Of a stretch of DNA of 64,000 nucleotides, positions 28,506-63,223 are shown in pieces. Location: positions 32,001 through 96,000 of the forward strand of contig JBFGLM010000003.1 of assembly GCA_041576165.1 (NCBI GenBank), read 5' to 3'. The stretch is from Acidimicrobiia bacterium. Lineage in GTDB: Bacteria; Actinomycetota; Acidimicrobiia; Spongiisociales; Spongiisociaceae. The position numbers and the translations under genes were made by a program. The notes under the pieces are model-generated. The model did not search any database. It worked only from the letters and a program-made list of their open reading frames with translations, and was not told the origin of the DNA. Every line of letters begins with the position of its first letter. Positions within the stretch are counted from its first letter, which is position 1.

Positions 28506-29795
28506 GTGGAATACATCAAAGCTCCCGTCCGCCCGCCGGATCAGGTCACCGACGAGGTGCGGTCGACGGTGTCGCAGATAATCAGTGAGGTCGAACGGGA
28601 CGGCGACAAGGCGGTTCGGCGCTACTCCGAGCGGTTCGACAACTGGAGTCCAGAGTCTTTCCGAGTGCAGCAGCCGACGATCGATCGGGCCTACGAGGAC
28701 ATGCACGCCGACGATGAGGTGCACAACGCGTCCCGTTTCCTGATCGAACAGGTGCGCAACTTCGCCCAGTTGCAGCGCGACACCTTGGTCGACTTCGAAA
28801 CCGAAACCCTGCCCGGCGTCTTCCTCGGGCAGAAACACATACCCATCAACAACGTCGGTGCCTACTCGCCCGGCGGCCTCTACCCGCTCATTGCCTCGGC
28901 GGTCATGACGGTCGCCACCGGTAAGGTCGCCGGAGTGCCGCGGGTGGTGGCAGCTGCGCCGCCCAAGGACGCCAAGGGCATCCATCCGCCGCAGCTATGG
29001 GCGATGGCCGAGTCCGGCGCCGATGAGATCTTTTGTGTAGGCGGTGTACAAGCACTGGCCGGCATGGCTTTCGGCCTCGAGGACAGTGAACCGGTCGACA
29101 TGATCGTGGGTCCGGGCAACGCCTACGTCGCTGAAGCGAAACGCCAGCTTTTCGGTCTAGTTGGGATCGACCTCCTCGCCGGACCCACCGAAATCATGAT
29201 CATCGCCGACGAAACCGGCGACCCCGGGATCCTGGCGTGTGATTTGCTGGGCCAGGCAGAGCACGGTCCCACCTCACCCGCCATCCTCGCTACCACCAGC
29301 GAAGAGGTCGGCCGGGAGACCATCAAAGAGGTCGAGAGGTGGCTCGAGTCGTGGCCGACGGCCGACGTCTCCCGCCGGGCCTGGGAGGACTACGGCACCG
29401 TCATCCTCGTCAACGACCACAGTGAGCTGGCCCGGGTTGCCGATGACATTGCGCCCGAGCACCTGGAGGTCCATACGTCGAATGATCAGTGGTTTGTCGA
29501 CAACCTCAAGAACTACGGGTCGCTGTTCATCGGTACTCAGGCGACTGTTGCGTTCTCGGACAAGGGCATCGGGACGAATCACACCCTGCCGACGATGCGG
29601 GCCGCCAGATATACCGGTGGACTATGGGTCGGCAAATTCCTGAAGACCGTGACGACCCAGCGGTGTACGCCGCAGGGTTCCAGCATCGTGGCGGAGCCCA
29701 CCGCGGTAGTGGCCGATGCAGAGCTGATGTTCGGACACGCGGTCAGCTCCCGTCTTCGCCTCAATCCGGAGTATTTCCCGGACGCCGTGCGATGA
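28506..29795 (+). CDS. Histidinol dehydrogenase-family alcohol dehydrogenase (HpsN-like branch)
   Basis: GAYSPGG, GGVQALA, GPGNAYVAEAKRQL, AGPTE, DLLGQAEHG, APEHL, DKGIGTNHTLPT. Not in a his operon. Confidence 0.85.
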   Translation: MEYIKAPVRPPDQVTDEVRSTVSQIISEVERDGDKAVRRYSERFDNWSPESFRVQQPTIDRAYEDMHADDEVHNASRFLIEQVRNFAQLQRDTLVDFETETLPGVFLGQKHIPINNVGAYSPGGLYPLIASAVMTVATGKVAGVPRVVAAAPPKDAKGIHPPQLWAMAESGADEIFCVGGVQALAGMAFGLEDSEPVDMIVGPGNAYVAEAKRQLFGLVGIDLLAGPTEIMIIADETGDPGILACDLLGQAEHGPTSPAILATTSEEVGRETIKEVERWLESWPTADVSRRAWEDYGTVILVNDHSELARVADDIAPEHLEVHTSNDQWFVDNLKNYGSLFIGTQATVAFSDKGIGTNHTLPTMRAARYTGGLWVGKFLKTVTTQRCTPQGSSIVAEPTAVVADAELMFGHAVSSRLRLNPEYFPDAVR

Positions 29796-30562
29796 GCGGA
29801 GTAACGATCGTCACGGGTGCCAGTCAGGGGATCGGTCGGGCCATTGCTCTCGGGTTTGCCCGCCAAGGCGGTGCGGTGGTGCTGGCTGCGCGCAACCGCG
29901 ACAACCTGCACACTGTGTCGCGAGAAGTTGTTGAGGCGGGTGGCACACCGATGGTCGTGCCGACCGACGTCTCGGATCGGGACAGCGTGGAGCACATGGT
30001 CGCTACGGTGATCGAGGAACACGGACGCGTTGACACGATGGTCAACAACAGCGGGATCGGTGGCCCGTCGGCCTGCCTGTGGGAGATAGACGAGTCCGAT
30101 TGGGACCGGACGATGGATGTGAACGTGAAGGGCGTGTTCCTGGGCTGCCGGGCGGTGATCCCGCACATGATCCGTCAGAGCAGCGGTTCCATCATTGTGA
30201 TCGGATCAATCAGCGGGAAGCGGCCTCTGTACGGGCGTACCCCCTACACGACTTCCAAGATGGCGCTGGTGGGACTGGTCCGGACTCTCGCAATGGAGGT
30301 TGGCGAGTATGGGATTCGGGCGAACCTGATCTCGCCCGGGTTCGTGTCCGGACCCCGCATCGATTGGGTCATCGGCGCTCAGGCGGAGGCACGCGGCATC
30401 ACCGAGGCGGAGGTGCGGGCGGAGTTCGAGAATCAAAGCCCGCTGCAACAGTTGACCGAGGCCGGCGACATCGCGGACATGTGCGTGTTCCTGGCCTCCG
30501 ATCGGGCCAAAGCGATCACCGGAACGGACATGAACGTGAATGCCGGTGTGGTGATGTATTGA
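29792..30562 (+). CDS. SDR family oxidoreductase
   Basis: TGASQGIG, NNSGI, YTTSK catalytic YxxxK, ISPG. Confidence 0.93.
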   Translation: MSGVTIVTGASQGIGRAIALGFARQGGAVVLAARNRDNLHTVSREVVEAGGTPMVVPTDVSDRDSVEHMVATVIEEHGRVDTMVNNSGIGGPSACLWEIDESDWDRTMDVNVKGVFLGCRAVIPHMIRQSSGSIIVIGSISGKRPLYGRTPYTTSKMALVGLVRTLAMEVGEYGIRANLISPGFVSGPRIDWVIGAQAEARGITEAEVRAEFENQSPLQQLTEAGDIADMCVFLASDRAKAITGTDMNVNAGVVMY

Positions 30563-30587
30563 TCGAAGCGGACGGAGGAGGCACAAC

Positions 30588-31274
30588 ATGTCGCGACTCG
30601 TAGATCTTTCCCAGCCCATATACGAAGGGATGATGGTTTATCCGGGACACCTCAAGACGGTGACGTTCCAGCACGCGACCCATGAAGAGACCGCCCCCCG
30701 GTTCGAAAGCGACTTCAGCTTCCAGACCTGGGGTTTCATTCTCAACGACAACGGACCGACGCACGTGGATGCTTGGTCGCATCTCGATCCGGATCCCAAC
30801 GCCGACTCGATCGAGAAGATGCCACTGGAGTTGTTCTACGGCCCGGCGCTGTGCCTCGACGTGTCCCAAGCTGCCCCGCGCACCGACATCACCGCCGAAC
30901 ACTTGGATGAGGCCCTCGACAAGTCCGGTCTGGCGCTGAACGAGGGCGACATGTGCTTCTTCTACACGGGGACGTACGACCGCTACGCCGGAAAACCCGA
31001 GTATCTGACGGATTTCGCCGGGATCGGTGAAACGGGTGCCCGCTGGATCGTAGACAAGGGCATCAAGACTTTCGGGGTGGATTCACCCACGCCGGACAAT
31101 CCGGCGTCAACGACCTATCCGGTGCATCTGATGAGCCGGGATGAGCGCATCACGCACTATGAGAATCTGGTGCTCACCGAGGTGGTGGGGACCCGTTTCA
31201 CGTTCGTGGGCTTTCCCCTGAAGGTGGTCGGAGCGCATGGCGGCCCCACTCGGGCGGTAGCGATCATCGACTGA
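30588..31274 (+). CDS. Cyclase family (kynurenine formamidase-like) metal hydrolase
   Basis: LVDLSQPI, GPTHVDAWSH, FGVDSPTPD, HYENL, GGPTRAVA. Confidence 0.9.
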   Translation: MSRLVDLSQPIYEGMMVYPGHLKTVTFQHATHEETAPRFESDFSFQTWGFILNDNGPTHVDAWSHLDPDPNADSIEKMPLELFYGPALCLDVSQAAPRTDITAEHLDEALDKSGLALNEGDMCFFYTGTYDRYAGKPEYLTDFAGIGETGARWIVDKGIKTFGVDSPTPDNPASTTYPVHLMSRDERITHYENLVLTEVVGTRFTFVGFPLKVVGAHGGPTRAVAIID

Positions 31275-31335
31275 GTCGCCGCGAGGACGGTGGTGGCCCC
31301 GGACCGTTCGAGAGCGACTCCACCTCCGCCGGGCC

Positions 31336-32691
31336 TCAGGGCGACCAGGTTGCGTTGATCCCGTCGGCGATCAGTATGGGTGATCCTGAGTCAATTGGTT
31401 GGACCCAGATGCCGGCCGCTCCGCCGTGGGTGCCTCCGGCGTAGACGAAGGCAGACGAGTCGGGCGACCAGAGAGAAACGCTGCGCTCGTACTGGTCGAA
31501 GAAGCTGAGGTAGCCGTTGCCGAACCGCGACGTCGGTGTGAACGCTTCGTAAGTGGTGGCGCCCGATCCATTCCACTCGTGCCATTGAATCTTCTGTATC
31601 CCGTCCATGAATGCGATGGTGCTGAACAGCAAGTGCTCGCCGTCGGGGCTCCAGGCCCATGAGACCGCCCGACCTTCGGCCACCGGAGTGACCGCGCCGT
31701 CCTCGAGGTCGATCACCACCAGATTCTCCGGCACCAGGATGGGGAGATCGGACAGGGTGGATTCGCTGATTTCGACGCCTTCGGGGGTCCAGGTGCTCAT
31801 CACTGCCAGCCGGTCAGTGTGTTCGTGGGTGACGACCGCCGCCGGGGCACTGAATCGGATCAGAGGGAGAGGATTGACCCCATTGGGACTGGCCACGGTG
31901 AGTATCTCTCCTACCTCACCGCCGTCGACCGAGTAGATGATGCGTTCGCCGGTGTGAGTTCCCACCCGGAACTGTCCATCCGTGGGGATGGTGGTCAGCG
32001 TCTCACCGGTGAGCGCGATCAACTCGAACCGCTCCTCGATGTGTACGAGAAGTGCGTCGCTGTCTGGTGCCCAGTCGACGTACATAGGTGCGCCAGTGCC
32101 GATGATGGCCGCCGCCTGGCCGGCCTGAGCTACCGCCAGCTGCATCTCGCCCCAGAAATCGTTACCCATGAACGCGACCGACGCACCGTCCGGTGACCAG
32201 GCGAGGTACTGGGCTTGGATCGGGGAATCAGCACGGCTTTGCTCGGCGCCGTCGGCCGACGCGATCACCAGCTGGTAAGAGTCCTCGCCGATCTCTTCGG
32301 TCCATGCAATCCGACTGCCGTCCGGCGACCACGTCGGCTGCGCGCGCCGGACATCGTTGGCCGGAGCGATGACCACCGGCCGGCTGCCGTCGGGTTGTAC
32401 GGTGAAGATGGACCAGTCCCTTCCCAAAACCAGAATCCGCCCGGCGACATCTCGCACCCGCATGTGGTCGGCTTCAGACACGACATCAAGGCTCGGGGTA
32501 GTTGTCGGCGCCGGCGTTGTCGCCGGCGGATCGAAATCCGGCAGCGCCGTCTGTTCAGGAGGGCGCTGGTTCGTGCAAGCGGCCGCGGCGAGGGCAACGA
32601 CGAGGATGGCGGCGCTGATCCTCGAGCGCGGTCGGGGGCGGCCACCGGACGAGGTGGGGACGCCCAACCCGGGAATGGTCTGGCGCTCCAT
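31336..32691 (-). CDS. TolB-like beta-propeller lipoprotein
   Basis: Lipobox AAAC and repeated W[SA]PD motifs. Confidence 0.8.
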   Translation of the reverse strand: MERQTIPGLGVPTSSGGRPRPRSRISAAILVVALAAAACTNQRPPEQTALPDFDPPATTPAPTTTPSLDVVSEADHMRVRDVAGRILVLGRDWSIFTVQPDGSRPVVIAPANDVRRAQPTWSPDGSRIAWTEEIGEDSYQLVIASADGAEQSRADSPIQAQYLAWSPDGASVAFMGNDFWGEMQLAVAQAGQAAAIIGTGAPMYVDWAPDSDALLVHIEERFELIALTGETLTTIPTDGQFRVGTHTGERIIYSVDGGEVGEILTVASPNGVNPLPLIRFSAPAAVVTHEHTDRLAVMSTWTPEGVEISESTLSDLPILVPENLVVIDLEDGAVTPVAEGRAVSWAWSPDGEHLLFSTIAFMDGIQKIQWHEWNGSGATTYEAFTPTSRFGNGYLSFFDQYERSVSLWSPDSSAFVYAGGTHGGAAGIWVQPIDSGSPILIADGINATWSP

Positions 32692-32693
32692 GG

Positions 32694-33758
32694 TCAAGCT
32701 ATCGGCACCGGAGCGCCGATCCGTACGGATTCGTCGATGGCGAGCGTCACGGCCAGCGTGCGTCGGGCCTCGGCGGCGGTCGGAATGTGACAAGGGCCGC
32801 CGGCGGTCAAATGATCGAGCCATGCCCTGGTTTCGTCTGCCACGCGTCCGAACATTGTTCCCCCCGCCCATTCACCCGAGGTCCGGCTGCCCAGGTACGC
32901 CAGGTTGAGCCGTTGATCGACATAGTCGTTCGAATAGCCGTGCTCGGTGTACAGCACCTGATCCCCGTGGTCCTCTGTAATGAACAACGCGCCGTCGGTA
33001 CCGATTAGTTCAATCCTCGTGGCGAGGCCCGCGATCGGATAGCCGGCCGGAAGCGAATAACTGGTGCCGAAACTGACCACAGCCCCGTCCTCGTACGTCA
33101 CGAGTGCAAATGTGGCGTCGTCGGCCGCGTAGCCCTCACTTCGCAGAATCTTTCCGTGGCCGCGGGCAACGACCTCGACCGGCGGCGCAGGGTGATACCA
33201 GCCGAGCACGTCGATCAGATACGTCAGGATGTCGGCTGCCGGGGTGGCGGACGGTGACCGGTCGAGAATCGCTCGTCCGACCGCAATCGTGTCGTAGGTT
33301 CGGGCCAGACCGCCAACGATCTGACCGACCCTGCCTGCCGACAGCTGTTCTTTCGCCACCGCGTAGCGCTGTGCGTAACGCATGGAGTACGCCACCCGAA
33401 GCTGGCCGTCGTCGGCCGCCTGCAGCAGGCGGTCGGCGTCCTCGAGGGTGAGCGCCAGCGGCTTTTCGACGAGAGTCACACATCCGGCGCTGAGCGCCGC
33501 CAGCACCGGCTCAACGTGGCGGCCTTCCGGTGTGGACACGATCGCAACCCTGATGTCGGGCAGGCTGAGGGTCTGGTGCACATCGGCACTCCAGTGATCG
33601 GCTCTGATCTCCTCGGCCAGGCGGCGGGCCGCAGCGGGATCGACGTCGACCACGGCCAGGAACCCGACCCCGGCGTGCTGGGCGGCCAATCGAGCGCGAT
33701 GACGCCCGATCTTGCCCGCTCCCACCACTGCCAGACCGACCGGGGCGGACCTCTCCAT
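32694..33758 (-). CDS. Gfo/Idh/MocA family oxidoreductase
   Basis: VVGAGKIG, VSTPEGRH, LVEKPLA. Confidence 0.92.
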   Translation of the reverse strand: MERSAPVGLAVVGAGKIGRHRARLAAQHAGVGFLAVVDVDPAAARRLAEEIRADHWSADVHQTLSLPDIRVAIVSTPEGRHVEPVLAALSAGCVTLVEKPLALTLEDADRLLQAADDGQLRVAYSMRYAQRYAVAKEQLSAGRVGQIVGGLARTYDTIAVGRAILDRSPSATPAADILTYLIDVLGWYHPAPPVEVVARGHGKILRSEGYAADDATFALVTYEDGAVVSFGTSYSLPAGYPIAGLATRIELIGTDGALFITEDHGDQVLYTEHGYSNDYVDQRLNLAYLGSRTSGEWAGGTMFGRVADETRAWLDHLTAGGPCHIPTAAEARRTLAVTLAIDESVRIGAPVPIA

Positions 33759-33803
33759 GGTCAGAAAACCGGCGAACGGCCCGACATCGGCCGGTTGATC
33801 ATT

Positions 33804-34868
33804 TCAGTGGGCCGCCGCTCGGTGGGCCCGCAGCGGGTCACGCCCGAAATCTCGTTTCGGGTCCCGCCAGACTGCGTGTACATGATTTCCCGCGTCCTGC
33901 ACGCAGTCGTATTCAACGAGAAGGGTGGGCCCGTGCAGGCGGTAGTAGTGGGGGTCTTCCTCGACATCTGAGCCAGCCCAGGCGAAATGGATCTCGTCGA
34001 GGCCGGCGGCTTCGAGCTTGGCCATCTCACGTTCGGCGGCAGGTTCCGGCAGTCGGGTCACGTAGATCGCGATCAGATCGTCGAGCAACGCCCGCTGCCC
34101 GTCAGCGAGATCCCGGCGGGGTAGGCCGGTGGGAGCGGCGAGATCGAGCGTGAGTGCGTCCTTTTCGTGATCGGCCAAGGAGGAGATCAGCTGCTGGAAG
34201 ATCCCCAGCGGGTGGACATGGTCGCCCGGGCGCATCACCTCCGGCAACTCGGGCAGGCGCTGCGCCACGATGTCGATCGGAGCCGGCGCATCGAGCACCG
34301 CCCGGTCGCGCTGGTCGAGATCGAGCGAAGCGAGCAATGCCCGCGCCGCATCCTCCTCCGGGGCGCAGGCTCGGGTGACGGGATACCCGCCCTTCGTCAC
34401 CCGGGCCGGGTTGGCTCCCAGGAACAGCGGAGTCGACGACACCAGTTCGCCGTCGATGATCACGTTGTTGAGCGAGACGTGGTGGCCCTCGAACTGCCAT
34501 GACCAAGTCCCGGATTCCCCAGGCTCCCCGAAGACCGTGATCCAGTAGCGGAGCGGATCCCGCAGCGAGGTGCGCGTGTATTGCTCGTGGGCGTCGAGCG
34601 GAATATCGAGAGCCATGATGGCCGCGATCTGGGCCAGCGTTGCGTAGTCAACACCGGTCGCGACGAGACGCATTGCCAGTTTCCGTTGCTCGAAGCCCAG
34701 CAGATGCAGTCCGATGCCCGGATAGCTGTCTCCGCTCATTTCACGCGGCCAGTACATCCACAGCTCCCGGCGCCTGTCGTCGAACGGGAGCAGAACCAAC
34801 GCCCGCTCGGCGTCGGTCAGCTCCTCCAAGAACGCCAGCGCCGCGTGCGTCATCGCTGAGGCCGTCAT
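33804..34868 (-). CDS. DUF3500 domain protein
   Basis: YWITVFGEP..WSWQFEGHHVSLN, TPLFLGANP, HYYRLHGP..VEYD..NHVHAVWRDP..DFG. Confidence 0.85.
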   Translation of the reverse strand: MTASAMTHAALAFLEELTDAERALVLLPFDDRRRELWMYWPREMSGDSYPGIGLHLLGFEQRKLAMRLVATGVDYATLAQIAAIMALDIPLDAHEQYTRTSLRDPLRYWITVFGEPGESGTWSWQFEGHHVSLNNVIIDGELVSSTPLFLGANPARVTKGGYPVTRACAPEEDAARALLASLDLDQRDRAVLDAPAPIDIVAQRLPELPEVMRPGDHVHPLGIFQQLISSLADHEKDALTLDLAAPTGLPRRDLADGQRALLDDLIAIYVTRLPEPAAEREMAKLEAAGLDEIHFAWAGSDVEEDPHYYRLHGPTLLVEYDCVQDAGNHVHAVWRDPKRDFGRDPLRAHRAAAH

Positions 34869-36833: not shown

Positions 36834-37147
36834 GACGCCTTCCCTCTCTCGACGGCCAGCGAACTCCCAGCCCGCCGGTAGCACGCTACCCGCCATCCGC
36901 GGCAGCGGCACGGGCTCGCCCTGTCAACAACGGTGACAGGGCGACTTCGGACTAATTGAGGGAGGTCGCGTATATTTGAGTAACAGTAATGAAGGTTGCC
37001 CCTGCCATCCGGCGAACGCGGATCAATCGGACAAGTGGGAGCGATCCGTCGCGTTGGTGCGGTGTGCCCCGCGATGCACAGGCACCGCCGGAACAGCAGC
37101 CTGGGTCCAGCCGCCCTCAGGGCCCATCGAGGGAAAGGTAGGAGAGT

Positions 37148-41468: not shown

Positions 41469-41471
41469 GCG

Positions 41472-54963: not shown

Positions 54964-56337
54964 TCAGTCAGGGCAATAACCAATCAGATCGAGCAGCACC
55001 TTCGCGCCGGGCACCAGCAGCGGTCCGCCGATCTCCAGGGTTGTCGAGGCTGGCTTGTCACCGTCGAAATGAGCCGCCCACTCCTCGATGCTCTGCGCGA
55101 ACCACTGAAAATCGGCATGAAACGCCTGCCGCCGGCAGATCTGGTCGAGGCTGGTCCCGGCCGCCTCACAGATCTTGGCGACGTTGTCCAGCATGTAGCG
55201 CATCTGCAGCTTGGGCGGCTGTCCATACCACGGGAAGTTGGGATGGCGCTCTGTCGACTCTTCCAACGACCCTTTGTGGTTGAACGGCAGGGTGGTCGAG
55301 AAGAACAGGAACTTCCCGGCCTTGACCGCCTGCGGTTCGTGCCCCAACCCTGGGGGCGCCTTGGTTGTTTCGATGGTTTCGATCTCCAGGTCGGAGTCGC
55401 CGGCCAGCAACTTGAAGGCGATCTCGATCCGGCTGCCTTTCCCGCCGAGTCCCATGTAGGGGATCACTACCCGGGCCGGTGGGTTCTCCGGAAACCAGTG
55501 ACGCCACACCTTGTCCATGCCTTCGAAATCACGCGGGTGCCCCAGATAGACCGTGGCCTTCACGGCTCGATCGAGCGACGTGCCGGCGGCATCCGCGATC
55601 GCCGCCTGTTTCTTGAGCACGTAGTCGGTGTGCGTCTCGATGTCGGAGTGGTACCAGAACAGCGGGTTGCGGCGTGCCTCCAGGGCGATGCCGCTCGGCT
55701 CGCCGTAATACTCGGACCTACCGAAATCGCCTACCCAATCGACCGGGATCTCGCCCGCCAGGAAGACCCAGTCGCCGCGGCGGATCGCCGGGCTGTACCC
55801 CGCCAACGGTGACGGCGTCCCTTCGGGAACCTCATAGCCGATGCTCGGGCCGGGATGCACCTCCGGGTCCATCCCGATCATGTCCACCTCGAGGATCGTG
55901 TCTTTCACCAGCAGCCCGGTTTCCCGAATGCCCATCCCGGTTGACGCAGGGCGCGGCTCCTCGATGAACTCGTTGCGGGTCAAGAGGTAGGGCATGATGT
56001 CGATGCGGGGCCAGGTGTTGCCCTGATCGAACTCGTCCATCGTGGGATACGGAGACGTGAACCACTGGTAGATGCGAACGATATCGGAGCTGATGTCTAT
56101 ACCGGCGGCTTCCGCCGTCCTCTGCAAGTTCTGCAGGACGTAGCGGGACTGGATCTCCAGCTGGTTCTCCACATAGCGGTTGCGCCCATCGCCGCCTGCC
56201 TCGGGCGCCAGCCCGGTCTCGAAATCAGACGCGAGCTGGCCGGCAAAGAACACCCAACCTCCCGCCTTGATGGCTGGGCTATACGGCATCAACGGCTTCG
56301 GCTCATCTCCCCATACTGCGGTGCGGTCGCTCGCCAC
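54964..56337 (-). CDS. Divergent triple-domain Rid-like protein
   Basis: Three units: PYSPAIKAGGWVFFAGQLA..RPASTG; GYSPAIRRGDWVFLAGE..PPARVV; EPQAVKAGKFLFFS..KPASTT. Confidence 0.85.
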   Translation of the reverse strand: MASDRTAVWGDEPKPLMPYSPAIKAGGWVFFAGQLASDFETGLAPEAGGDGRNRYVENQLEIQSRYVLQNLQRTAEAAGIDISSDIVRIYQWFTSPYPTMDEFDQGNTWPRIDIMPYLLTRNEFIEEPRPASTGMGIRETGLLVKDTILEVDMIGMDPEVHPGPSIGYEVPEGTPSPLAGYSPAIRRGDWVFLAGEIPVDWVGDFGRSEYYGEPSGIALEARRNPLFWYHSDIETHTDYVLKKQAAIADAAGTSLDRAVKATVYLGHPRDFEGMDKVWRHWFPENPPARVVIPYMGLGGKGSRIEIAFKLLAGDSDLEIETIETTKAPPGLGHEPQAVKAGKFLFFSTTLPFNHKGSLEESTERHPNFPWYGQPPKLQMRYMLDNVAKICEAAGTSLDQICRRQAFHADFQWFAQSIEEWAAHFDGDKPASTTLEIGGPLLVPGAKVLLDLIGYCPD

Positions 56338-56365: not shown

Positions 56366-57169
56366 TCAGACCGAAGCCGCGTCGAGCAGCCCTGTCGCCT
56401 CGGTGATCTCGGTTATGCCGCGCAGGTCGTCGGGCAGCTCCATTCCCCTACGGGCGTAGTACTCGGCGAGAAGCGCCGGGGCGTCGACTACCAGGCCGAG
56501 GTGGAGCGAGATGACTTGAAGCGCCGCGTTCTCCGCGATCTCGGAGTAGCCGGCGACAATGTCGCGCGGCACGATGACCCGGAAGTCCAGGTTGGCCGCG
56601 TCGAACGCCGTCGACAGAACGCAGGCGTCGGTGTAGGTGCCGGTCAGGATGACGTTGTGAACATCGAGGTTCCGTAGCAAGAATTCCAGGTCGGTCGGGT
56701 AGAAAGCCGATAGCCGCTTCTTGGTCCGGATGTAGTAGTCGCCCTCGATCTCCTCGGTCATCAGGTCGAGCCATTTCGTGCCCTCCCACGAGTGCTCGTC
56801 CATCAGCTCGTTGTCCTCGATATAGAGGTAATAGAGCACCCGCCAGTTGGCCATGCGGTTGTGTTTGCGGTTGTTCAGATCGTCAATACCGCCGTAGCGC
56901 TGCCAGTGCTGAACGTGAATCACGGGCATGCCGAGGTTGCGGCACTCGGCATGGAAGCGATCGTGGGCGGGGATACGGGCGCGGGCGCGTGGTGCCGGAA
57001 GCGTCAACCGCTCGTCGGGACCGACATGGCCCCGGTGCATGTCGATCTCGACCACCGCAGTCTTGTCGGGGTCGAGCCAGGTTTCGAACGCGTCGTCGTA
57101 GTCAGGGACGCCGCTCGGGAGGACCAGCTTGCGCCCGTCCTCCATGTAGCAGTACAGCTCGGTTTGCAT
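56366..57169 (-). CDS. Isochorismatase-like cysteine hydrolase
   Basis: AVVEIDM (Asp), KKRLSAFYPTDL (Lys), TGTYTDACVLSTAFDA (Cys) catalytic triad. Confidence 0.9.
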   Translation of the reverse strand: MQTELYCYMEDGRKLVLPSGVPDYDDAFETWLDPDKTAVVEIDMHRGHVGPDERLTLPAPRARARIPAHDRFHAECRNLGMPVIHVQHWQRYGGIDDLNNRKHNRMANWRVLYYLYIEDNELMDEHSWEGTKWLDLMTEEIEGDYYIRTKKRLSAFYPTDLEFLLRNLDVHNVILTGTYTDACVLSTAFDAANLDFRVIVPRDIVAGYSEIAENAALQVISLHLGLVVDAPALLAEYYARRGMELPDDLRGITEITEATGLLDAASV

Positions 57170-57184: not shown

Positions 57185-58372
57185 TCAGGCGGCGCAGCCG
57201 ATCGAAGCCGGGTCGATCGCCTCGCCATCGCCCTGCAGACCGATGGTCGGGCTGCCGGCCGTCTCGTCAGGGATGGTGATTGACCCGGACCGGACCGCCT
57301 CCACGATCGAGTCGTAGGTGGCACGTTCCTCGTCAGACAGCAGACCGGCGATGTTCTCGTACAGCGGCGCCGCGATTTCCGGGTTGTTGGTGGCGTCGAA
57401 CTCGATGAAGTCTTTCGCTCCGATCTCGCCGTTGGCGGCTCGTTCGATCACTTGCTGGGAAGTGAAGGTGAGCCCGTGGATCGCAGATGTCAACACCACG
57501 TCCGGGCCGAGTTCCTGGCTCTCGTAGTAGGACGGTATGACCCAGACCTGGCTGTCTGACTGTTCGGCTGCCTCCAGGATGCCGAAGACCGCCGAGTCGG
57601 TGGCAGACAAGATCACGTCTGCACCTCCGGCGATTTCGGACTGGGCCGCCGACTTGGCAATGGCTGTGTCGATCCACGTGTCGATGTATTGCTGGCTGAA
57701 CTCGATGTCCGGGTTCACGCACCGCGCACCGAGCACGAACGCCTCGGGTTGACGGGTCAGTCCGGGGAACTCGAACCCGTTGAGCGAAGCAATGTGGCCG
57801 GTGTCGGTCACCAGTGCGGCCAGCACCCCTGCGAAGAAGTTGGCGTTGTGTTGAGCCGGGTCGACCCAGCACAGATTGTCCGGCTGGTTATCGCCTCCGG
57901 TCGCGTCGCCGGGGTGGTGTGGAGCGAGGCACACCTGGACGTCCGGGAACTGCTCCGCCAGCGTGATGGCGGGATCCACCATGGCGCCGTGGGCGATGAG
58001 GATGAAGTCGAAGCCTTGCCCGGCAAAGGCTGCTCCCTGCTGCACCACGGCGTCGGGATCGTTGAGCAGATCGACGGACTCGACCACGATGTTCGGGTTG
58101 TTGGCCATGGCCTGCTTGGCCCCGTCGAACCAGGCATTCGACCAGGAGAGGTCGTCCTCGGTGCCCGGGTAGATCAATGCCACCCGGAAAGGCTCGCCGC
58201 TCGGTTCGGCTTCGGTCGCCGCCGTCGTTTCCTCCGGCGCGGTGGTGCCTTCGGGTGCGGCGGTAGTCGCGGTTTCCTCGTCGCCGTCGCCACAAGCCGC
58301 CAGCACCATCACCAGGGCCGTGGCAAGGGCAAGTAGGCGGAGGAACCCGTCGATTGACCGTAGGTCGCCCAT
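57185..58372 (-). CDS. BMP/PnrA-family ABC substrate-binding lipoprotein
   Basis: Lipobox LAAC-G, DDLSWSNA, FFAGVLAA, GADVI. Confidence 0.9.
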   Translation of the reverse strand: MGDLRSIDGFLRLLALATALVMVLAACGDGDEETATTAAPEGTTAPEETTAATEAEPSGEPFRVALIYPGTEDDLSWSNAWFDGAKQAMANNPNIVVESVDLLNDPDAVVQQGAAFAGQGFDFILIAHGAMVDPAITLAEQFPDVQVCLAPHHPGDATGGDNQPDNLCWVDPAQHNANFFAGVLAALVTDTGHIASLNGFEFPGLTRQPEAFVLGARCVNPDIEFSQQYIDTWIDTAIAKSAAQSEIAGGADVILSATDSAVFGILEAAEQSDSQVWVIPSYYESQELGPDVVLTSAIHGLTFTSQQVIERAANGEIGAKDFIEFDATNNPEIAAPLYENIAGLLSDEERATYDSIVEAVRSGSITIPDETAGSPTIGLQGDGEAIDPASIGCAA

Positions 58373-58453
58373 GATCTCCTCCCAAGTCGATCTGATGTCT
58401 TTGAGTCAGACAAAAGGCACTTTACTGAAGATGAATGCCGCGTGCCCGGGTGG

Positions 58454-59383
58454 TCAGGCAGACTCGCTCTGGGCCCGGTACGGAATGCCGACCGCGGCCG
58501 GGTAGGTGGATCCCGGAGCGAACACCACGGCGACGGTGGTGACCAGGTAGGGCAGCGCCACCCACAGTTGGGTCGGGATCGATGCCAAGGCGTCCAGCTG
58601 GTTGGCCAGAAACTGGAGCCCCTGCGTGAGTCCGAAGCCGAGCGCATAGATGACAACCCACTTCGGTCGCCATTTGGCGAGGACGACCACGCCCAGTGCG
58701 ATGAACCCGCGGCCGGCGGTCATTCCCGGGATGAATCCACCAGAGGTGCTGAGGACGAGGGCGGCCCCGCCGAGAGCGGCGAATACGCACCCGATGACGA
58801 CGGCTGGATACCGTAGGCGACGGACGTCGAGGCCGCCGGATTCGGCGGCCAGCGGGCGCTCACCGGCCGAGCGGGCGTAGAGCCCCCACCAGGTGCGGTT
58901 GAGGAGCCAGTGCACCCCGACTGCTAGTCCGAGCGCCAGGTAGAGCATGATGTTCTGGTCGCCGAGGACGTCGCCGATCCAGCGGATGTCCGTGATCAAA
59001 GGCAGTTCGATCGATCCCAGCGTCTCGCCGTTCTGGCCGGCGAGGTACCGCGAGTGGAGGGTGGCCGTGAAACCGAGCGCGAATATGTTGAACATGAGGC
59101 CGGTCACGATCTGATCGGTGCCTCGTCGGACGTAGAGGTAGGCCAGGATGGCACCGCTGAACAACCCCGACCCGGCTCCGGTGACGATGGCCAGGGGCAC
59201 GTTGCCGATCTGAATCCCGATGAAGGCGGTGAAGAGAGCTCCGATCAGCATGGCGCCTTCGATCCCGACGTTGAGGACCCCGGCCTTTTCTGCCACGGCC
59301 TCGCCCAGCGCAGCCAGCAGAATCGGCACCGCGAGCTGGATCCCGATGACGAAGAACGCGATCACGAGCGCTTCAGTGAGCAT
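58454..59383 (-). CDS. Nucleoside-type ABC permease
   Basis: EKAGVLNVGIEG, GRGFIAL, ALPYLVT. Confidence 0.92.
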   Translation of the reverse strand: MLTEALVIAFFVIGIQLAVPILLAALGEAVAEKAGVLNVGIEGAMLIGALFTAFIGIQIGNVPLAIVTGAGSGLFSGAILAYLYVRRGTDQIVTGLMFNIFALGFTATLHSRYLAGQNGETLGSIELPLITDIRWIGDVLGDQNIMLYLALGLAVGVHWLLNRTWWGLYARSAGERPLAAESGGLDVRRLRYPAVVIGCVFAALGGAALVLSTSGGFIPGMTAGRGFIALGVVVLAKWRPKWVVIYALGFGLTQGLQFLANQLDALASIPTQLWVALPYLVTTVAVVFAPGSTYPAAVGIPYRAQSESA

Positions 59384-60443
59384 CGGGGTTCTCTGGGTAC
59401 TGGAACTTTATGAGCCCGCCGACCATCAACAGGATGACGAACACTGCGACGATGATCTCGCCGACACTCGGTGATAACCCGGCTCCCGCCTGCAGGCTGT
59501 TGCTCCCCACCCGCAGGATGGCGAAGAATCCGGCCGACGCGATGATCCACAACGGGTGAAGCCGGGCGACCAAGGCCACGCCGATCCCCACAAAACCGAA
59601 ATTCGCCGAGAAGTTCTGGAGCAGGGAGTGATCTCGACCTTGGACGATCAACGCCCCGGCCAGACCGGCGAATGCACCGGCGATGAGGAACGCTTGCACG
59701 GTGACCCGCTCGGTGCGAATACCGGCGAGTCGGGCCGTCCGCTCATTTGCTCCGATCGCTCGGATCGAAAACCCGAGCCGGGTCCGGCTGATGGCGATGA
59801 ACGCGATCACGGCCGAGGCGAGCGCGAGAAAGATCCCGATGTCAACCAGGGAACCCGACCAGGGTCGAGCGTACTCGGCGTTGACGGCGATGCTCTCTGT
59901 TCGCTGGACAAAGCCCTCCGGAAAGACGTCGAAGATCACCCACGCGGCCGTGAAGGTTGCCACGAAGTTCAGCATCAGCGTGGTCACGATCTCGCTGGCG
60001 TCGAACCGCGCCTTCAGCCAGCCGGGAATCGCGGCCCAGACGGCACCGGCCGCGATCGCCCCTGCCGTCACGGCTGCGATCAAGAGGACCCGGGGCCAGG
60101 TGTCGGGTAGGGCGATGCCCAGGACGGCTGCGGCCATGGCACCCGCGGTCATCTGGCCCTCGCCGCCGATGTTCCACAGCCGGGCTGAGAACGGGATGGC
60201 GGCCGCGAGCGCTACCAGGATCAGAATCCCCGACACCACGATCGTCTGACTCAGGTTGAATGTATTGCCGATCGAGCCGCTGATGAGTGTCCGGCCGACG
60301 TCGATGGGGCTGGCCCCGAGAATGGCGACCAGCACGGCCATTACGGCGAGCGTGCCGGCCAGCGCCAGCAGGGATCGCACCCAGCCGGGAAGCGTCCGGC
60401 CGGCGCCGGCCCGAACGAGGTTGGCGGGAACCGGCGTATCCAT
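59373..60443 (-). CDS. Nucleoside-type ABC permease
   Basis: WNIGGEGQ, SEIVTTLMLNF, GFVGIGVAL. Confidence 0.92.
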   Translation of the reverse strand: MDTPVPANLVRAGAGRTLPGWVRSLLALAGTLAVMAVLVAILGASPIDVGRTLISGSIGNTFNLSQTIVVSGILILVALAAAIPFSARLWNIGGEGQMTAGAMAAAVLGIALPDTWPRVLLIAAVTAGAIAAGAVWAAIPGWLKARFDASEIVTTLMLNFVATFTAAWVIFDVFPEGFVQRTESIAVNAEYARPWSGSLVDIGIFLALASAVIAFIAISRTRLGFSIRAIGANERTARLAGIRTERVTVQAFLIAGAFAGLAGALIVQGRDHSLLQNFSANFGFVGIGVALVARLHPLWIIASAGFFAILRVGSNSLQAGAGLSPSVGEIIVAVFVILLMVGGLIKFQYPENPDAH

Positions 60444-61424
60444 CTATGGCAGGAAGGCGCCGACGCCTTGAATCTCAGCAAGGCGCTTGCGATAGGCAAT
60501 TCCGGATGCGTCCGGCACTTTGAGGTGCAATTCGTCCCGAAGATCGGTCGGGATCTGCTCTGGACGCTGGCTCTCGACGACCGCCCGGTCCTGTTCCATG
60601 ATCGTGTGGGTGAAATCGATGAAACCTTGATCGTGGATTGGGTCCAGGTCGTAGTTGCGGGCGATCCAGAGGAACATGTGGGTCGTGGTGTCGTTGGTGG
60701 GGGAGGACGCCATTGAGATAAGTGTGCGGTCGCCGCTGGGGATGGTCTTGCGCAGATGGATCGTGAACGGGCCGGTCAGCCAGTACTCCCATTTGACTAT
60801 GTCATCTTCTCCTGAATGCAGGGTCGACGGCTCGGGCGCCTCGTACCAGTAATAGAGCATGCGACCCAGATTCTCGACGGTGTGCTCCGCGACCACCGTT
60901 CTCTCCCGGGAGCCGAGGATCCCTTCGTGAACGTATGGGAAGTGGGACAAATCCATGAAGTTCTCCACCGAACGGCCCGCGGACGTATTCCAGACGTAGT
61001 GATGAGACACGAACGTCCTGTATCCGGGGTCATCCCATTCATCGTTCGGGAAGGGCGGGATGTCTTCGACCGGTTCATCGAGCGCCAACCACACCAAGCC
61101 GAAACGCTCGGCCGTCCGGTAGACGATCGCCCTCGCCTTGGAGGGGATGGGCGAACCGGGTGGGAGCGACGGAATGTGAACGCAGGCACCGGTCTCGTCA
61201 TACGCCCAGCCGTGATAGCCGCTACGCAGGATGCCGTCTTCGATGAAACCACGCGACAGGGCAACGCCGCGGTGAATGCACAGGTCCTTGAATACCCGCA
61301 CCTCCCCTGACGGGGCGCGAAAGGCAACTAGGTCGTCGCCGAGCAGAGTGAACCGCTGGGGCTGGTCTCCGACGGCGGACGACTCGGCGATCGGGTGCCA
61401 GTAGTTCGCCAGGGTTGCTGCCAT
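60444..61424 (-). CDS. Rieske non-heme iron oxygenase, alpha subunit (VanA/NdmA-like demethylase type)
   Basis: YWHPIA, CIHRG...SGYHGW (second Rieske Cys is Ser), ENFMDLSHFPYVH, EQDRAVVESQ. Confidence 0.88.
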   Translation of the reverse strand: MAATLANYWHPIAESSAVGDQPQRFTLLGDDLVAFRAPSGEVRVFKDLCIHRGVALSRGFIEDGILRSGYHGWAYDETGACVHIPSLPPGSPIPSKARAIVYRTAERFGLVWLALDEPVEDIPPFPNDEWDDPGYRTFVSHHYVWNTSAGRSVENFMDLSHFPYVHEGILGSRERTVVAEHTVENLGRMLYYWYEAPEPSTLHSGEDDIVKWEYWLTGPFTIHLRKTIPSGDRTLISMASSPTNDTTTHMFLWIARNYDLDPIHDQGFIDFTHTIMEQDRAVVESQRPEQIPTDLRDELHLKVPDASGIAYRKRLAEIQGVGAFLP

Positions 61425-61441
61425 TGGACGACCCTCCTCGC

Positions 61442-61527
61442 CGGGCGATTGCCCCCGGACGCTACCAGTTATCATTGACCAGAGTGAAGAAGCATGCAGT
61501 GTCATTGAAGTCCGCGGGCGATTGCCC
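61442..61527. promoter_or_regulatory. Divergent promoter region flanked by a 13-bp direct repeat
   Basis: CGGGCGATTGCCC at 61442-61454 and 61515-61527, with an AT-richer core between them. Confidence 0.5.
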
Positions 61528-61557
61528 AGCGGCGTGTCGGTCCATGGAGCTCGCTCG

Positions 61558-61971
61558 ATGAGCGGAGGACCCGGCTACGAGCCGGTCATTCCGTCCCGGG
61601 CGCGGATCCTCCCCGACGACGACACGTGTCCAGAACTCCCGATCGTGGTCGAAAGCGGTAGAGCATGGGCCGTGGCCTGGCCAGGCTCGGGCGCTCACCT
61701 CCGTTCCATGCATCGCATCTCGCTGCCGGCCTCGGCTTCGACCGTCCCGCTCCGGCACCCGATGGAATCGGTCTACTACGTCATGGCGGGCGCGGCGGTG
61801 GCGCATGACCTCGATCTGCAGCAAGAACATCCGCTCACTCTCGGTTCGATGATCTTGATCGATCCGGGAACGCGTTACGAACTGGTGGCAGGTGATGAAG
61901 GGGCCGAGCTCGTCGGCGGACCTTGTCCACCCGACCCGGGCATGTACACACATTTGGGAGAGGGTCACTGA
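61558..61971 (+). CDS. Cupin domain protein A
   Basis: LRHPMESVYYVMAG, LIDPGTRY, VGGPCPPD. Confidence 0.8.
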   Translation: MSGGPGYEPVIPSRARILPDDDTCPELPIVVESGRAWAVAWPGSGAHLRSMHRISLPASASTVPLRHPMESVYYVMAGAAVAHDLDLQQEHPLTLGSMILIDPGTRYELVAGDEGAELVGGPCPPDPGMYTHLGEGH

Positions 61972-62372
61972 TGGCCATACACGTGCTGCACAAGGATGAA
62001 CCGGATCTCATGATGCCCATGAGTGCGGCGGACGCCCGCCTCATCGTGTGGGCGGGCCGCGGGTCGCAGACCGCCAACATGAACTACGTGGACATGCAGC
62101 CCGGTGAGCGGAACATCCCGCATACCCATAAGGGCTCGGAGGACACGCTGTATGTGATCGAGGGCCGCGGCACCATGGAGGATCTCAGTAACGGCCTCGA
62201 ACTTGCATTCGAGGCGCCGTGCGCAGTGCACGTGCCGGTCGGCCTGTGGCACGCCGTCAAGGCGGACCGGGGCAGCAACATCGAGAGTGTTGGCGGACCT
62301 TCGCCGGCCGACTGGAACATGCTGGTGCGGGTCGGCGGCTACCAACGGCTCACGATCGGGGACTCGCCGTGA
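61971..62372 (+). CDS. Cupin domain protein B (metal-binding)
   Basis: PHTHKGSEDTLYVIEGRG, VPVGLWHAV, VGGPSPAD. Confidence 0.88.
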   Translation: MAIHVLHKDEPDLMMPMSAADARLIVWAGRGSQTANMNYVDMQPGERNIPHTHKGSEDTLYVIEGRGTMEDLSNGLELAFEAPCAVHVPVGLWHAVKADRGSNIESVGGPSPADWNMLVRVGGYQRLTIGDSP

Positions 62373-63223
62373 GACATGAGATCACCATCGGACTCGCTCA
62401 GATCAGCGCTGAGCCTTACGAAGTCGAGGCAAACCGCAAGCTATGCGCGGACACCATCAGGGACGCCTTCGGACAAGGGGCCGACCTCGTGGTCCTGCCC
62501 GAGCTGATCATTCCCGGCTATGTAGCCGACGCCGCCCGGCTGTTTCCCATCGCCGAGCCGGTCGGTGGTGAAACGGTCCGCGAATGGACCGACCTGGCAG
62601 CCGAGGCCGGCGGCTACGTTGTCGGGGGCCTGGCCGAACGCGCCGGCGAGTCTCTGTACAACACCGCAGTTGCGGTCGGCCCGCAAGGACTGATCGGGCA
62701 TTACCGCAAAACCCACCTGTTCGCCGATGAGAAGGTGGCCTTCGCACCCGGCGATATGGGGTTCCCGGTGGTGCGGACCCGATTTGGGACCATCGGAATC
62801 TGCGTCTGCTACGACCTGAGGTTCGTGGAAGTCGTGCGGTTGATGGCTCTGCAGGGAGCCGACCTGATTTGTGTCCCGACCGCCTGGCTCCCCGGCTATG
62901 ACCAGCAGCGGTGGGACGCCGACGGCATGTCGCCCCAGGGTCGAGGCGCTGAACTCCAAGCCAATCTCAACCAGGTATTCATAGCCTGCGCCTCCCAGGC
63001 CGGCATCCACGGGCAATGCGACTTCCTTGGTTCGTCGATCCTCATCGACCCGTTCGGAAAGCGGCTGGTGGGCCCGCTGTCCGGCTCGGACGACGAAGTG
63101 GTGCTGGCCACGGTGGACATTGCCGATGCCAAGCGCTCCCAGGTACGGGGGGAGATGATCTCTCCGAGAGCGGACCGCCGCACGGACATCTACCAGATCG
63201 CAGTCGACGAGCAGCTGCTCTAA
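62369..63223 (+). CDS. Nitrilase-superfamily carbon-nitrogen hydrolase
   Basis: E-K-C triad: VVLPEL, YRKTHL, VCYDLRF. Confidence 0.92.
   Translation: MRHEITIGLAQISAEPYEVEANRKLCADTIRDAFGQGADLVVLPELIIPGYVADAARLFPIAEPVGGETVREWTDLAAEAGGYVVGGLAERAGESLYNTAVAVGPQGLIGHYRKTHLFADEKVAFAPGDMGFPVVRTRFGTIGICVCYDLRFVEVVRLMALQGADLICVPTAWLPGYDQQRWDADGMSPQGRGAELQANLNQVFIACASQAGIHGQCDFLGSSILIDPFGKRLVGPLSGSDDEVVLATVDIADAKRSQVRGEMISPRADRRTDIYQIAVDEQLL

Follow-up and report, generated by a model that had tools for sequence, protein, structure and literature searches.

A conserved gene cluster of an Acidimicrobiia bacterium that joins molybdenum hydroxylase subunits to a cupin pair and C-N hydrolases, and its possible role in the breakdown of an N-heteroaromatic compound

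We analysed 64 kb of DNA from an Acidimicrobiia bacterium (contig JBFGLM010000003.1:32001-96000; this whole stretch of 64,000 nucleotides is called the window below) and describe a gene cluster in it that encodes molybdenum (Mo) hydroxylase subunits together with two cupins, several C-N hydrolases, two three-domain Rid (3x-Rid) proteins and two ABC importers. Open reading frames (ORFs) were taken from all six frames and assigned to families with Pfam, and curated function models were applied from NCBIfam with their cut-offs. Pfam recovers every gene family that an earlier reading of this DNA (the original prediction) had listed, each where it had been placed. The assembly comprises 5.1 Mb in 161 contigs, with a completeness of 96.5% and a contamination of 7.5%. 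Acidimicrobiia is also the label on the sources of close homologues and related loci. The contig of the cluster further encodes ClpB and a dnaK-grpE-dnaJ operon, and since its DnaK is 73-85% identical to DnaK of all 24 sampled genomes of the same family (24/24), the contig fits the genome bin.

The genes fall into three transcription units. Unit 1 (plus strand, 37148-51054) encodes an XRE-cupin regulator, the Mo-hydroxylase subunits M, L1, S and L2, the 3x-Rid protein Rid3a, a five-gene HAAT importer and an OYE-family protein. Unit 2 (minus strand, 61505-51131) is convergent with unit 1 and encodes a Rieske oxygenase, two permeases and the binding protein of a BMP-type importer, an isochorismatase-like hydrolase, the second 3x-Rid protein (Rid3b), a third catalytic Mo-hydroxylase subunit (L3) and the importer ATPase. 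Unit 3 (plus strand, 61522-63223) diverges from the Rieske gene and holds cupin 1, cupin 2 and a nitrilase-type gene, the two cupin genes meeting in a TGATG overlap.

Related loci were collected in two ways. An alignment of Rid3a yielded 80 genome loci, which are a sample and no census, and a metagenome scan with an alignment of cupin 2 yielded 80 loci, of which the 38 of at least 6 kb were counted and the 42 shorter ones dropped. Among the genome loci, L006-L014 come from metagenome-assembled genomes (MAGs) labelled Acidimicrobiia, and L015 is labelled 'uncultured bacterium'. Locus L010 belongs to a genome flagged as unpublished (G183); our statements on conservation hold without it.

Throughout L006-L015, Rid3a is 75-83% identical and the neighbouring genes stand alongside in modules. 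The whole set stands on the 633-kb contig of genome G186 (loci L015 and L102, left flank L103), where the order is 3x-Rid-like, CocE, XRE, M, L1, S, L2, Rid3a, five HAAT genes, OYE, a HAD-family gene, BMP ATPase, L3, Rid3b, isochorismatase, BMP binding protein, two permeases, Rieske, cupin 1, cupin 2, nitrilase, EamA and cyclase. This is the order found in the window, with identities of 49-87%. Genome G182 (contig with L008/L104) has, as far as its contig goes, the same gene set in another arrangement (OYE, Rieske, cupins, nitrilase, cyclase, EamA, BMP permeases, binding protein, isochorismatase, Rid3b); the contig stops at Rid3b, and neither L3 nor the BMP ATPase appears on the available sequence. 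Rid3b occurs in four of the five genomes holding L008, L009, L010, L014 and L015, with copies 83-87% identical, and gave no match in the fifth, G184. The HAAT importer genes are 61-80% conserved in L007-L015. The CocE gene has an 81% copy beside the XRE-cupin gene in L015, 77-79% copies in five of 11 close metagenome loci and 55-63% copies beside 3x-RidA in L017, L064 and L077, while the XRE-cupin regulator is 60-64% identical in L009, L010 and L015.

In the metagenome loci, cupin 2 is accompanied by cupin 1 in all 38, by the nitrilase in 27, the cyclase in 25, S in 17, M and L2 in 16 each, L1 in 12 (11 of them with L2), the isochorismatase in 10, the XRE-cupin regulator in eight, Rieske in seven, OYE in six and Rid3a in two. 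When the count is confined to the 27 loci whose cupin 2 is less than 70% identical, M and S remain at 16 each, L2 at 14, L1 at 11, the nitrilase at 17, the cyclase at 16, the regulator at eight and the isochorismatase at seven; Rieske, OYE and Rid3 occur once each. Several of the distant loci keep the M-L1-S-L2 order divergent from the cupins. Additional families near cupin 2 are an NMT1/THI5-type binding protein (six loci), CMD (four), XdhC (three), Amidohydro_1 (three) and Amidohydro_2 (two). The genes from 35.1 kb on thus recur together in other genomes and on metagenome contigs beyond chance, as expected from the proposal that they form a conserved unit. The conserved core consists of the Mo hydroxylase M-L1-S-L2, the cupin pair, the nitrilase-type amidase, the cyclase-type hydrolase and the XRE-cupin regulator. 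Not all families listed in the original prediction are part of this core: the genes for Rid, OYE, Rieske and HAAT proteins are additions, present mainly in close, Acidimicrobiia-like loci and in a few partial cases across phyla.

On the basis of the G186 gene order and the 80-locus comparison, we place the ends of the conserved cluster at CocE (35088) and EamA (about contig position 97962). It would thus cover about 31 kb and about 25 genes and reach about 2 kb past the window end, and the limits of 28.5 and 63.2 kb drawn earlier have to be shifted accordingly. The suspicion that the 28.5-35 kb part is a separate module is confirmed by the same comparison: its HisD-like, PD40, Gfo/Idh/MocA and DUF3500 genes have no match in any of the 80 genome loci, its SDR gives generic matches of 25-37% only and its cyclase a single match of 23%. 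Nothing resembling the genes from HisD to DUF3500 lies in the 20 kb left of the G186 cluster (L103), and the part from 28.5 to 34.9 kb does not belong to the conserved cluster. Past the window end (L005), the conserved cyclase and EamA are followed by a PfkB kinase, a ribosome hibernation factor and then an unrelated-looking operon. This cyclase is 81% identical in L014, 76% in L008, 70% in L102, 65% in L077 and 64% in Rhodococcus ruber; in all five it adjoins the nitrilase gene or stands one gene (EamA) away. No DM13 match was found between the nitrilase and cyclase/EamA in the related loci examined, and the DM13 ORF is an insert seen in this genome only.

Table 1. Coordinates of the cluster genes and of adjoining features (window positions unless marked as contig positions)
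Feature	Position	Strand	Basis and remarks
HisD-like dehydrogenase	28506-29795	+	Pfam; outside conserved cluster
Left module: HisD-like, SDR, cyclase, PD40, Gfo/Idh/MocA, DUF3500	28506..34868	mixed	Pfam; outside conserved cluster
Cyclase of left module	30588-31274	+	Pfam
PD40 beta-propeller ORF	31336-32871	-	Pfam; absent from original prediction
CocE/NonD-family serine hydrolase, left end of cluster	35088-36911	-	Pfam Peptidase_S15 + PepX_C
XRE-HTH + cupin regulator, PuuR-like architecture	37148-37771	+	Pfam HTH_3 + Cupin_2
Mo-hydroxylase FAD subunit M	37793-38683	+	Pfam FAD_binding_5 + CO_deh_flav_C
Mo-hydroxylase catalytic subunit L1	38680-40992	+	Pfam Ald_Xan_dh_C + MoCoBD_1 + MoCoBD_2
Mo-hydroxylase 2x[2Fe-2S] subunit S	40989-41468	+	Pfam Fer2 + Fer2_2
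Mo-hydroxylase catalytic subunit L2	41472-43748	+	Full-length Pfam matches
3x-RidA (Rid3a)	43885-45147	+	Pfam Ribonuc_L-PSP, 3 stretches
HAAT-type ABC importer: binding protein, two permeases, two ATPases	45187-49849	+	Pfam Peripla_BP_6, BPD_transp_2 x2, ABC_tran x2
OYE-family FMN protein	49870-51054; start codon uncertain (49846-49879)	+	Pfam Oxidored_FMN, 208 bits
Double-cassette ATPase, BMP-type importer	51131-52657	-	Pfam ABC_tran x2
Third Mo-hydroxylase catalytic subunit L3	52654-54939	-	Pfam
3x-Rid (Rid3b)	54964-56337	-	Pfam, 3 stretches
Isochorismatase-like cysteine hydrolase (amidase)	56366-57169	-	Pfam Isochorismatase
BMP-family binding protein + two permeases	57185-60443	-	Pfam Bmp, BPD_transp_2 x2
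Rieske/VanA_C oxygenase alpha subunit	60444-61505	-	Pfam Rieske + VanA_C
Cupin 1, partner cupin without HxH metal motif	61522-61971	+	Sequence; no Pfam hit at E<=1e-5
Cupin 2, metal-site cupin	61971-62372	+	Pfam Cupin_2
Nitrilase-superfamily C-N hydrolase (amidase or carbamoylase type)	62369-63223	+	Pfam CN_hydrolase, 168 bits
DM13-domain ORF	63286-63924	+	Pfam DM13; absent from original prediction
Conserved cyclase beyond window end	contig 96131-97081 (L005:1131-2081)		Pfam Cyclase
EamA transporter beyond window end	contig ~96979-97962 (L005:1979-2962)		Pfam EamA

Parts of the cluster are found on plasmids of cultured bacteria. Plasmid pmega_2 of R. ruber MSA14 encodes an XRE-cupin protein (46% identity), two Rieske proteins (39% and 33%), each with a VanB-type reductase, a single bicupin in which cupin 1 (35%) is fused to cupin 2 (49%), a nitrilase-type protein (44%) and the 64% cyclase. 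In the neighbourhood of this module (L098, 82750-111706) are an operon for a Mo-type formate dehydrogenase, a malate synthase G gene and two DUF1116 genes, which hints at formate and glyoxylate as products in the R. ruber host. Plasmid pPAT9B02 of Pantoea sp. At-9b carries both cupins (cupin 1 at 40%, cupin 2 at 44%) along with two Rieske genes of 39% and 33% identity and genes for a VanB reductase, an isochorismatase-family protein, a flavin monooxygenase and a nitrilase-related protein. The best plasmid match of L2 is from Neorhizobium (50%), with M, S and L alone nearby; the plasmid collection holds no 3x-RidA match at E<=1e-40, and Rieske loci on Caballeronia and Niallia plasmids were uninformative.

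Other genome loci hold partial versions, such as L017 (HAAT, OYE, Rid3, L, S, CocE) and L026 (HAAT, Rid3, M, L1, S). One Hyphomicrobiales MAG has three copies of a Rid3-HAAT-Rieske module (L043, L044 and L045), with OYE in two of them. The L045 copy comprises OYE, Rid3, Rieske, HAAT, L2 and S, and DDE transposase genes lie beside it, which suggests that the module is mobile in this MAG. For the cluster in the window, the term 'island' used in the original prediction is not borne out in the sense of a mobile insert: GC content is even along the window (0.62-0.69), no tRNA gene was found in the 64 kb, and the 40 kb upstream of dnaK share no flank genes in six same-family genomes, so that no empty site can be defined; integrases were not searched for.

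The Mo-hydroxylase subunits L1, L2, L3, M and S all give full-length Pfam matches and make up the complete domain set of the xanthine oxidase family, in which L combines an a/b-hammerhead with two MoCo-binding domains, M has the FAD_binding_5 and CO_deh_flav_C domains and S has two [2Fe-2S] domains. The closest solved relative of L1 is the quinoline 2-oxidoreductase subunit QorL (1t3q, E 1e-161, full length), that of L2 is 6-hydroxypseudooxynicotine dehydrogenase (KDH; 7dqx, E 7e-178), and L3 is closest to CoxL (8uem) and CutL (E ~1e-136). The three catalytic subunits are about 36% identical to one another. With annotated kdhC from Paenarthrobacter plasmids, L2 shares 42% identity, and given this value and the different pathway neighbours, we rejected L1 and L2 as orthologues of Qor and KDH and treat the latter as closest relatives only. 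Form I CoxL of CO dehydrogenase (CODH) is marked by an AYRCSFR active-site loop with a Cu-binding Cys. The corresponding residues are SYRVRSRA in L1, AYRARGHV in L2 and SFRSVVTN in L3, and the CODH model TIGR02416 scores 404-515 bits against a cut-off of 991. We rejected CODH identity, as the Cys-containing loop is missing from all three.

S is 70-77% identical in the distant loci, and copies of L3 (59-65%) occur in L015 and L122. M is the only M gene of the cluster, which thus has three L genes per one M and one S. Because of this ratio, and because L3 never adjoins an M or S gene in the versions seen, M and S are likely shared among several L subunits. The whole genome encodes 14 L, seven M and nine S subunits; orphan catalytic L subunits are common in this organism.

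Cupin 2 belongs to a family of 414 protein clusters, and its residues H51, H53, E57 and H94 are invariant in an alignment of 24 sequences. Cupin 1 adjoins it in 76 of the 80 metagenome loci, and this adjacency, together with the fusion in R. ruber, suggests that the two proteins act as partners. The conserved cyclase past the window end contains the HxGTHxDxPxH motif, which is the metal motif of the cyclase family (kynurenine formamidase / isatin hydrolase type), in the form LHAGTHLDGPMH; with 40 bits, it falls short of the cut-off of 223 set for the arylformamidase model. Solved relatives of the nitrilase-type protein are PH0642 and a Pyrococcus nitrilase (E 1e-40) and Nit2 (E 3e-23), followed by carbamoylases. 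Its catalytic Cys motif is ICVCYD, and no branch-specific model exceeds its cut-off.

Each domain of a RidA-subfamily imine/enamine deaminase has a conserved active-site Arg. Rid3a has this Arg in all three domains, R114, R255 and R396 being invariant in 16 sequences, and its relatives form at least 1646 protein clusters at 90% identity (E<=1e-20, best 7999 candidates scored). Rid3b has the Arg in domain 2 only; its domains 1 and 3 read PAS instead of PAR. Both proteins score above the cut-off of TIGR00004; the RutC model gives 154 bits for Rid3a and 78 bits for Rid3b, below its cut-off of 169. The solved relatives of the OYE protein are YqjM-class ene-reductases and 2,4-dienoyl-CoA reductase. 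Its C-terminal end carries a CxxCxxC-x10-C motif ([4Fe-4S] type) in 11 of 11 orthologues, which resembles the FeS site of 2,4-dienoyl-CoA reductase-type enzymes, and an NAD(P)H/FAD domain is lacking.

The Rieske protein is related to the solved structures of SxtT/SxtDIOX, NdmA and NdmB (E 1e-43 to 1e-34) and is 35-37% identical to annotated HpxD, a Mo-independent xanthine hydroxylase. Its likely start is Met28 (61424), with GGAGG upstream. In the mononuclear-iron domain (Pfam VanA_C), N182, D185, H188 and H193, which we take to be the iron-site residues, are invariant in the alignment. The original prediction saw a demethylase in this protein. It need not be one, since the annotated HpxD relatives are ring hydroxylases and one cluster Cys is also missing here (see below); from its relatives, it could either hydroxylate a ring or remove an N-methyl group.

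The weak solved relatives of the isochorismatase-like protein (E 1e-10 to 1e-7) are nicotinamidase, biuret hydrolase, RutB (E 1e-8) and N-carbamoylsarcosine amidase. CocE exceeds the cut-off of TIGR00976 (237 bits against 66), and the XRE-cupin regulator stays below that of the PuuR model (79.5 bits against 211). Of the NCBIfam models, 'putative B6 ABC transporter ATP-binding protein' comes closest to the ATPase of the BMP-type importer, with 450 bits against a cut-off of 670; the binding protein and permeases also match 'putative B6 ABC transporter' models below their cut-offs.

From the gene content, the homologies, the motif conservation and the co-occurrence, all of which are observed, we infer the substrate class, the order of steps and the sharing of subunits. 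Our preferred reading, to which we assign a probability of about 55%, is that the genes from 35.1 to 63.2 kb plus some 2 kb beyond form one conserved catabolic cluster, by which an N-heteroaromatic compound is taken up and hydroxylated twice beside the ring nitrogen, its ring processed and its nitrogen hydrolysed off. The link of the key oxidoreductases to N-heteroaromatic rings, made in the original prediction, is in keeping with their closest relatives, QorL, KDH, NdmA, SxtT and HpxD. The host is most likely an importer and degrader of an N-containing ring compound, from an Acidimicrobiia lineage of soil and sediment.

The sequence of events would begin with import of a small N-heteroaromatic, preferably a monocyclic pyridine- or pyrimidine-type ring with both carbons flanking the nitrogen free. 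Qor places a first hydroxyl beside the ring nitrogen, and KDH places a second on an already 6-hydroxylated pyridine. As L1 and L2 of the core are relatives of these two enzymes, we propose that L1 and then L2 hydroxylate the two positions flanking the nitrogen to give a 2,6-dioxo (glutaconimide-like) ring, with one FAD and one FeS subunit serving both the Qor-like L1 and the KDH-like L2. The cupin pair and the cyclase-type hydrolase would then process the ring, by opening it and/or by loss of a formyl or lactam bond, and the nitrilase-type amidase would free the remaining amide nitrogen as ammonia. Several steps would be additions in the version of this genome: reduction of a ring C=C bond by the FMN/[4Fe-4S] ene-reductase, hydrolysis of enamine or imine intermediates to carbonyl and ammonia by the two 3x-Rid proteins, and insertion of a hydroxyl or removal of an N-methyl group by the HpxD/NdmA-like Rieske protein, with the CocE-type hydrolase as a further added enzyme. 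BMP importer, isochorismatase, Rid3b and L3 may constitute a side-entry module that feeds in a related compound, for example a carboxamide, and borrows M and S.

Within the preferred reading, a monocyclic substrate of the pyridine or pyrimidine type seems to us somewhat likelier than a purine or pteridine, because the parts that point to purines (Rieske and BMP) are peripheral to the conserved core. A bolder version, which we consider rather doubtful, takes the core for a widespread undescribed mineralisation route for a common pyridine- or pyrimidine-type metabolite, with one FAD/FeS pair shared by interchangeable L subunits for successive hydroxylations, a new two-protein cupin responsible for the ring-processing step and, in Acidimicrobiia, dedicated 3x-Rid partners for hydrolysis of the enamine or imine products. 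Candidate substrates under this version include vitamin or cofactor fragments such as nicotinamide/nicotinate, isonicotinate or a B6- or thiamine-pyrimidine-like ring.

Several observations weigh against the catabolic reading or parts of it. None of the window proteins reaches an NCBIfam equivalog cut-off; only general models pass (CocE_NonD, the hisD equivalog-domain and the Rid family). By Pfam, the cluster encodes no ring-cleavage dioxygenase, flavin monooxygenase or decarboxylase of known type. Cupin 2 has no solved sequence relative at E<=0.01, its AlphaFold model has a mean pLDDT of 64 and a disordered N-terminus, and Foldseek retrieves generic cupins only, so that the ring-opening role of the cupin pair is a guess. 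The importers vary among versions (HAAT, BMP, NMT1/THI5), and the substrate may therefore not be the same in every version. The closest relatives of the Rieske protein act on purine-like rings and BMP binding proteins typically bind nucleosides or purines, both of which point away from pyridine. The cluster is also patchy in its distribution, as a search at E<=1e-60 detected Rid3a neither in 150 further genomes sampled from the class nor in 40 relatives (24 of the same family), and among the sampled genomes and loci no cultured organism had the complete cluster.

The Rieske step raises two further difficulties. First, Pfam finds no reductase partner encoded in the window cluster, and VanB-type reductases are present in the R. 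ruber and Pantoea loci. Second, the Rieske motif reads CxH...SxxH, the second [2Fe-2S] Cys being replaced by Ser (AGC at 61221-61223; TGC would be Cys), and Cys occupies this column in eight of eight homologues. The contigs of four public runs from four studies show no other letter at the Ser codon, two of them near a contig end and one possibly from the source sample. As the second cluster Cys is Ser, the Rieske step may be altered or lost in this genome.

The best-placed competitor, which we nevertheless judge unlikely, keeps the same type of cluster and takes its substrate to be a methylated purine or a bicyclic base resembling a purine or pteridine. The Rieske protein would then be a xanthine-type hydroxylase or N-demethylase, the Mo enzymes would hydroxylate several ring carbons, the isochorismatase-like, nitrilase-like and cyclase amidases would dismantle ureido or amide fragments, and Rid would deaminate aminoacrylate-like products as in the Rut pathway. 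The affinity of the Rieske protein to SxtT, NdmA/B and annotated HpxD and the presence of a BMP-type importer speak for this, but Rieske, BMP and Rid occur mainly in the close, Acidimicrobiia-like loci, Rieske and Rid3 each in just one of the 27 distant core loci. An isochorismatase gene beside a Rid gene recalls RutB beside RutC, and Rid3a approaches the RutC model with its 154 bits, yet this score stays under the cut-off of 169 and the RutA and RutB models are unmatched. The nitrilase relatives include entries labelled beta-ureidopropionase as well as carbamoylases, and malate synthase G, DUF1116 and formate dehydrogenase genes lie near the R. ruber locus; on the other side, NCBIfam reveals no uricase, allantoinase, HIU hydrolase or XDH equivalog, and the best relative of L2 hydroxylates a pyridine ring.

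It is improbable that there is no single pathway at all, and that independent operons merely stand side by side: one for a Mo oxidoreductase of aldehydes or aromatics, one for amino-acid import that includes a housekeeping 3x-RidA, one for nucleoside import, and assorted hydrolase genes. Most proteobacterial 3x-RidA genes do adjoin only a HAAT importer (permease and ATPase clusters each in 43 of the 80 loci), usually without other cluster genes; the modules vary in combination and order, and with 14 L subunits in the genome, Mo enzymes are common here. Such a patchwork would, however, hardly account for a gene set that stays together through rearrangement in G182, G186 and several metagenome contigs, for an L3 without its own M and S in all versions seen, or for one type of XRE-cupin regulator that accompanies the core, Rhodococcus included. 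A role of the Mo enzymes in energy supply or detoxification instead of ring hydroxylation, as form-II CoxL-type or aldehyde oxidoreductases acting on CO or aldehydes, is very improbable: glyceraldehyde dehydrogenase and aerobic CODH group 5 lead the NCBIfam scores, though under their cut-offs, and L3 is closest to CoxL and CutL, but no L subunit has the CODH loop Cys, the cluster lacks coxDEFG-type accessory genes by Pfam, L1 and L2 match QorL and KDH better than CoxL, and the genes conserved in the neighbourhood encode amide and C-N hydrolases.

Many contigs from soil and sediment carry the core. If its substrate is a common metabolite, the cluster would represent a missing piece of soil nitrogen and vitamin turnover, carried by poorly cultured Acidimicrobiia, and it would provide the first physiological setting for 3x-RidA, for a Mo hydroxylase with swappable L subunits and for an unstudied cupin family. 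Since R. ruber MSA14 and Pantoea sp. At-9b carry the Rieske/cupin part, that part can be tested in culture.

Some features of the surrounding DNA are recorded here for completeness. A minus-strand operon past the window end (contig 100212-108996; L005:5212-13996) is headed by a third three-domain Rid gene, whose product has the RidA Arg in two of three domains, and contains PPDK_N-like, M24 (creatinase/prolidase-like), HMGL-like, alpha/beta-hydrolase and amidohydrolase genes; it may be a further catabolic unit for nitrogen compounds. Within the window, the dnaK-grpE-dnaJ heat-shock operon (19240-23859) includes a second DnaJ-like ORF, which also weakly matches GrpE at its C-terminus, and a MerR (HspR-like) regulator. 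A predicted surface protein of 1168 aa (13334-16840) with five SdrD_B repeats and CarboxypepD_reg domains adjoins mscL and is unrelated to the cluster.

Nicotine, nicotinate, quinoline, picolinate and purines are well-known examples of N-heterocycles whose breakdown is initiated by a Mo hydroxylase. To our knowledge, their pathways do not use the families encoded here for the later steps, namely the cupin pair, the cyclase-type hydrolase, the nitrilase-type amidase, the FeS-type OYE and the 3x-Rid proteins. Neither a curated family model nor a paper was found that names the pathway, as the original prediction had anticipated, and our literature searches, which left most subscription journals outside their coverage, yielded no published description of this gene combination. 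What is known is the kind of cluster and the name 3x-RidA; the combination of families, the M-L-S-L layout with a remote third L and the cupin/cyclase/nitrilase lower part appear to be new within the coverage of these searches.

In the nic cluster of Pseudomonas putida, NicC is a flavin monooxygenase, NicX a dioxygenase and NicD an alpha/beta-hydrolase deformylase. Flavin monooxygenase and alpha/beta-hydrolase families were not found in our cluster by Pfam, a family-level result without sequence comparison to the Nic proteins. The nicotinate pathways (nic, the 2,6-dihydroxynicotinate route of Bacillus niacini, the THON route of Eubacterium/Azorhizobium and Aspergillus Hxn) resemble the proposed route in their logic, by analogy only: the cupin pair, cyclase and nitrilase would stand where those pathways have NicX, NicD and NicF or HxnM and HxnN, a likeness by description and not by sequence. 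According to PMC9304392, the Mo hydroxylases of the B. niacini route attack beside the ring nitrogen twice, the Aspergillus route uses an OYE-type reduction of the hydroxylated pyridine ring followed by an imidase and an amidase, a single enamidase both opens the ring and deaminates in the THON route, and an omega-amidase acts after KDH in the nicotine pyridine pathway. PMC8552603 describes a Rid protein that assists an imine-forming step of nicotine breakdown, which a deformylase and an amidase (Nfo, Ami) complete.

The three-domain design was named 3x-RidA, and a covalently linked trimer was proposed for it, by Niehaus et al. (2015, PMC4433059), whose accessible text reports no biochemical role. 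Both window Rid proteins share the design of three domains per chain, and Rid3b differs in keeping the Arg in one domain only. With the Rut pathway, the cluster has in common an isochorismatase-like hydrolase directly beside Rid, with RutB among the solved relatives; the RutA, RutD, RutE and RutF families are absent here, and the RutC model remains below its cut-off. Both domains of the Rieske protein, Rieske and VanA_C, can be aligned with HpxDE, NdmABD and SxtT along their full length, with about 35-39% identity, but there is no adjacent reductase gene and the second Rieske Cys is Ser.

The Mo hydroxylases themselves lead to two systems. L1 matches QorL of Pseudomonas putida 86 over its full length (E 1e-161); no downstream quinoline genes were found in our cluster, and the OxoO-type 2-oxoquinoline monooxygenase (1z01) matches the Rieske protein weakly (E 4e-9). 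The pyridine pathway of nicotine breakdown on pAO1 of P. nicotinovorans is similar in the match of L2 to KDH, in the M/S/L three-subunit design and in its terminal amidase of the nitrilase superfamily. Our cluster differs from it in having no equivalog of nicotine dehydrogenase, no amine oxidase and no flavin hydroxylase, with identities far below orthologue level, and in combining two L genes with one M/S pair, in having a third L, and in its cupin pair, 3x-Rid proteins, OYE and ABC importers.

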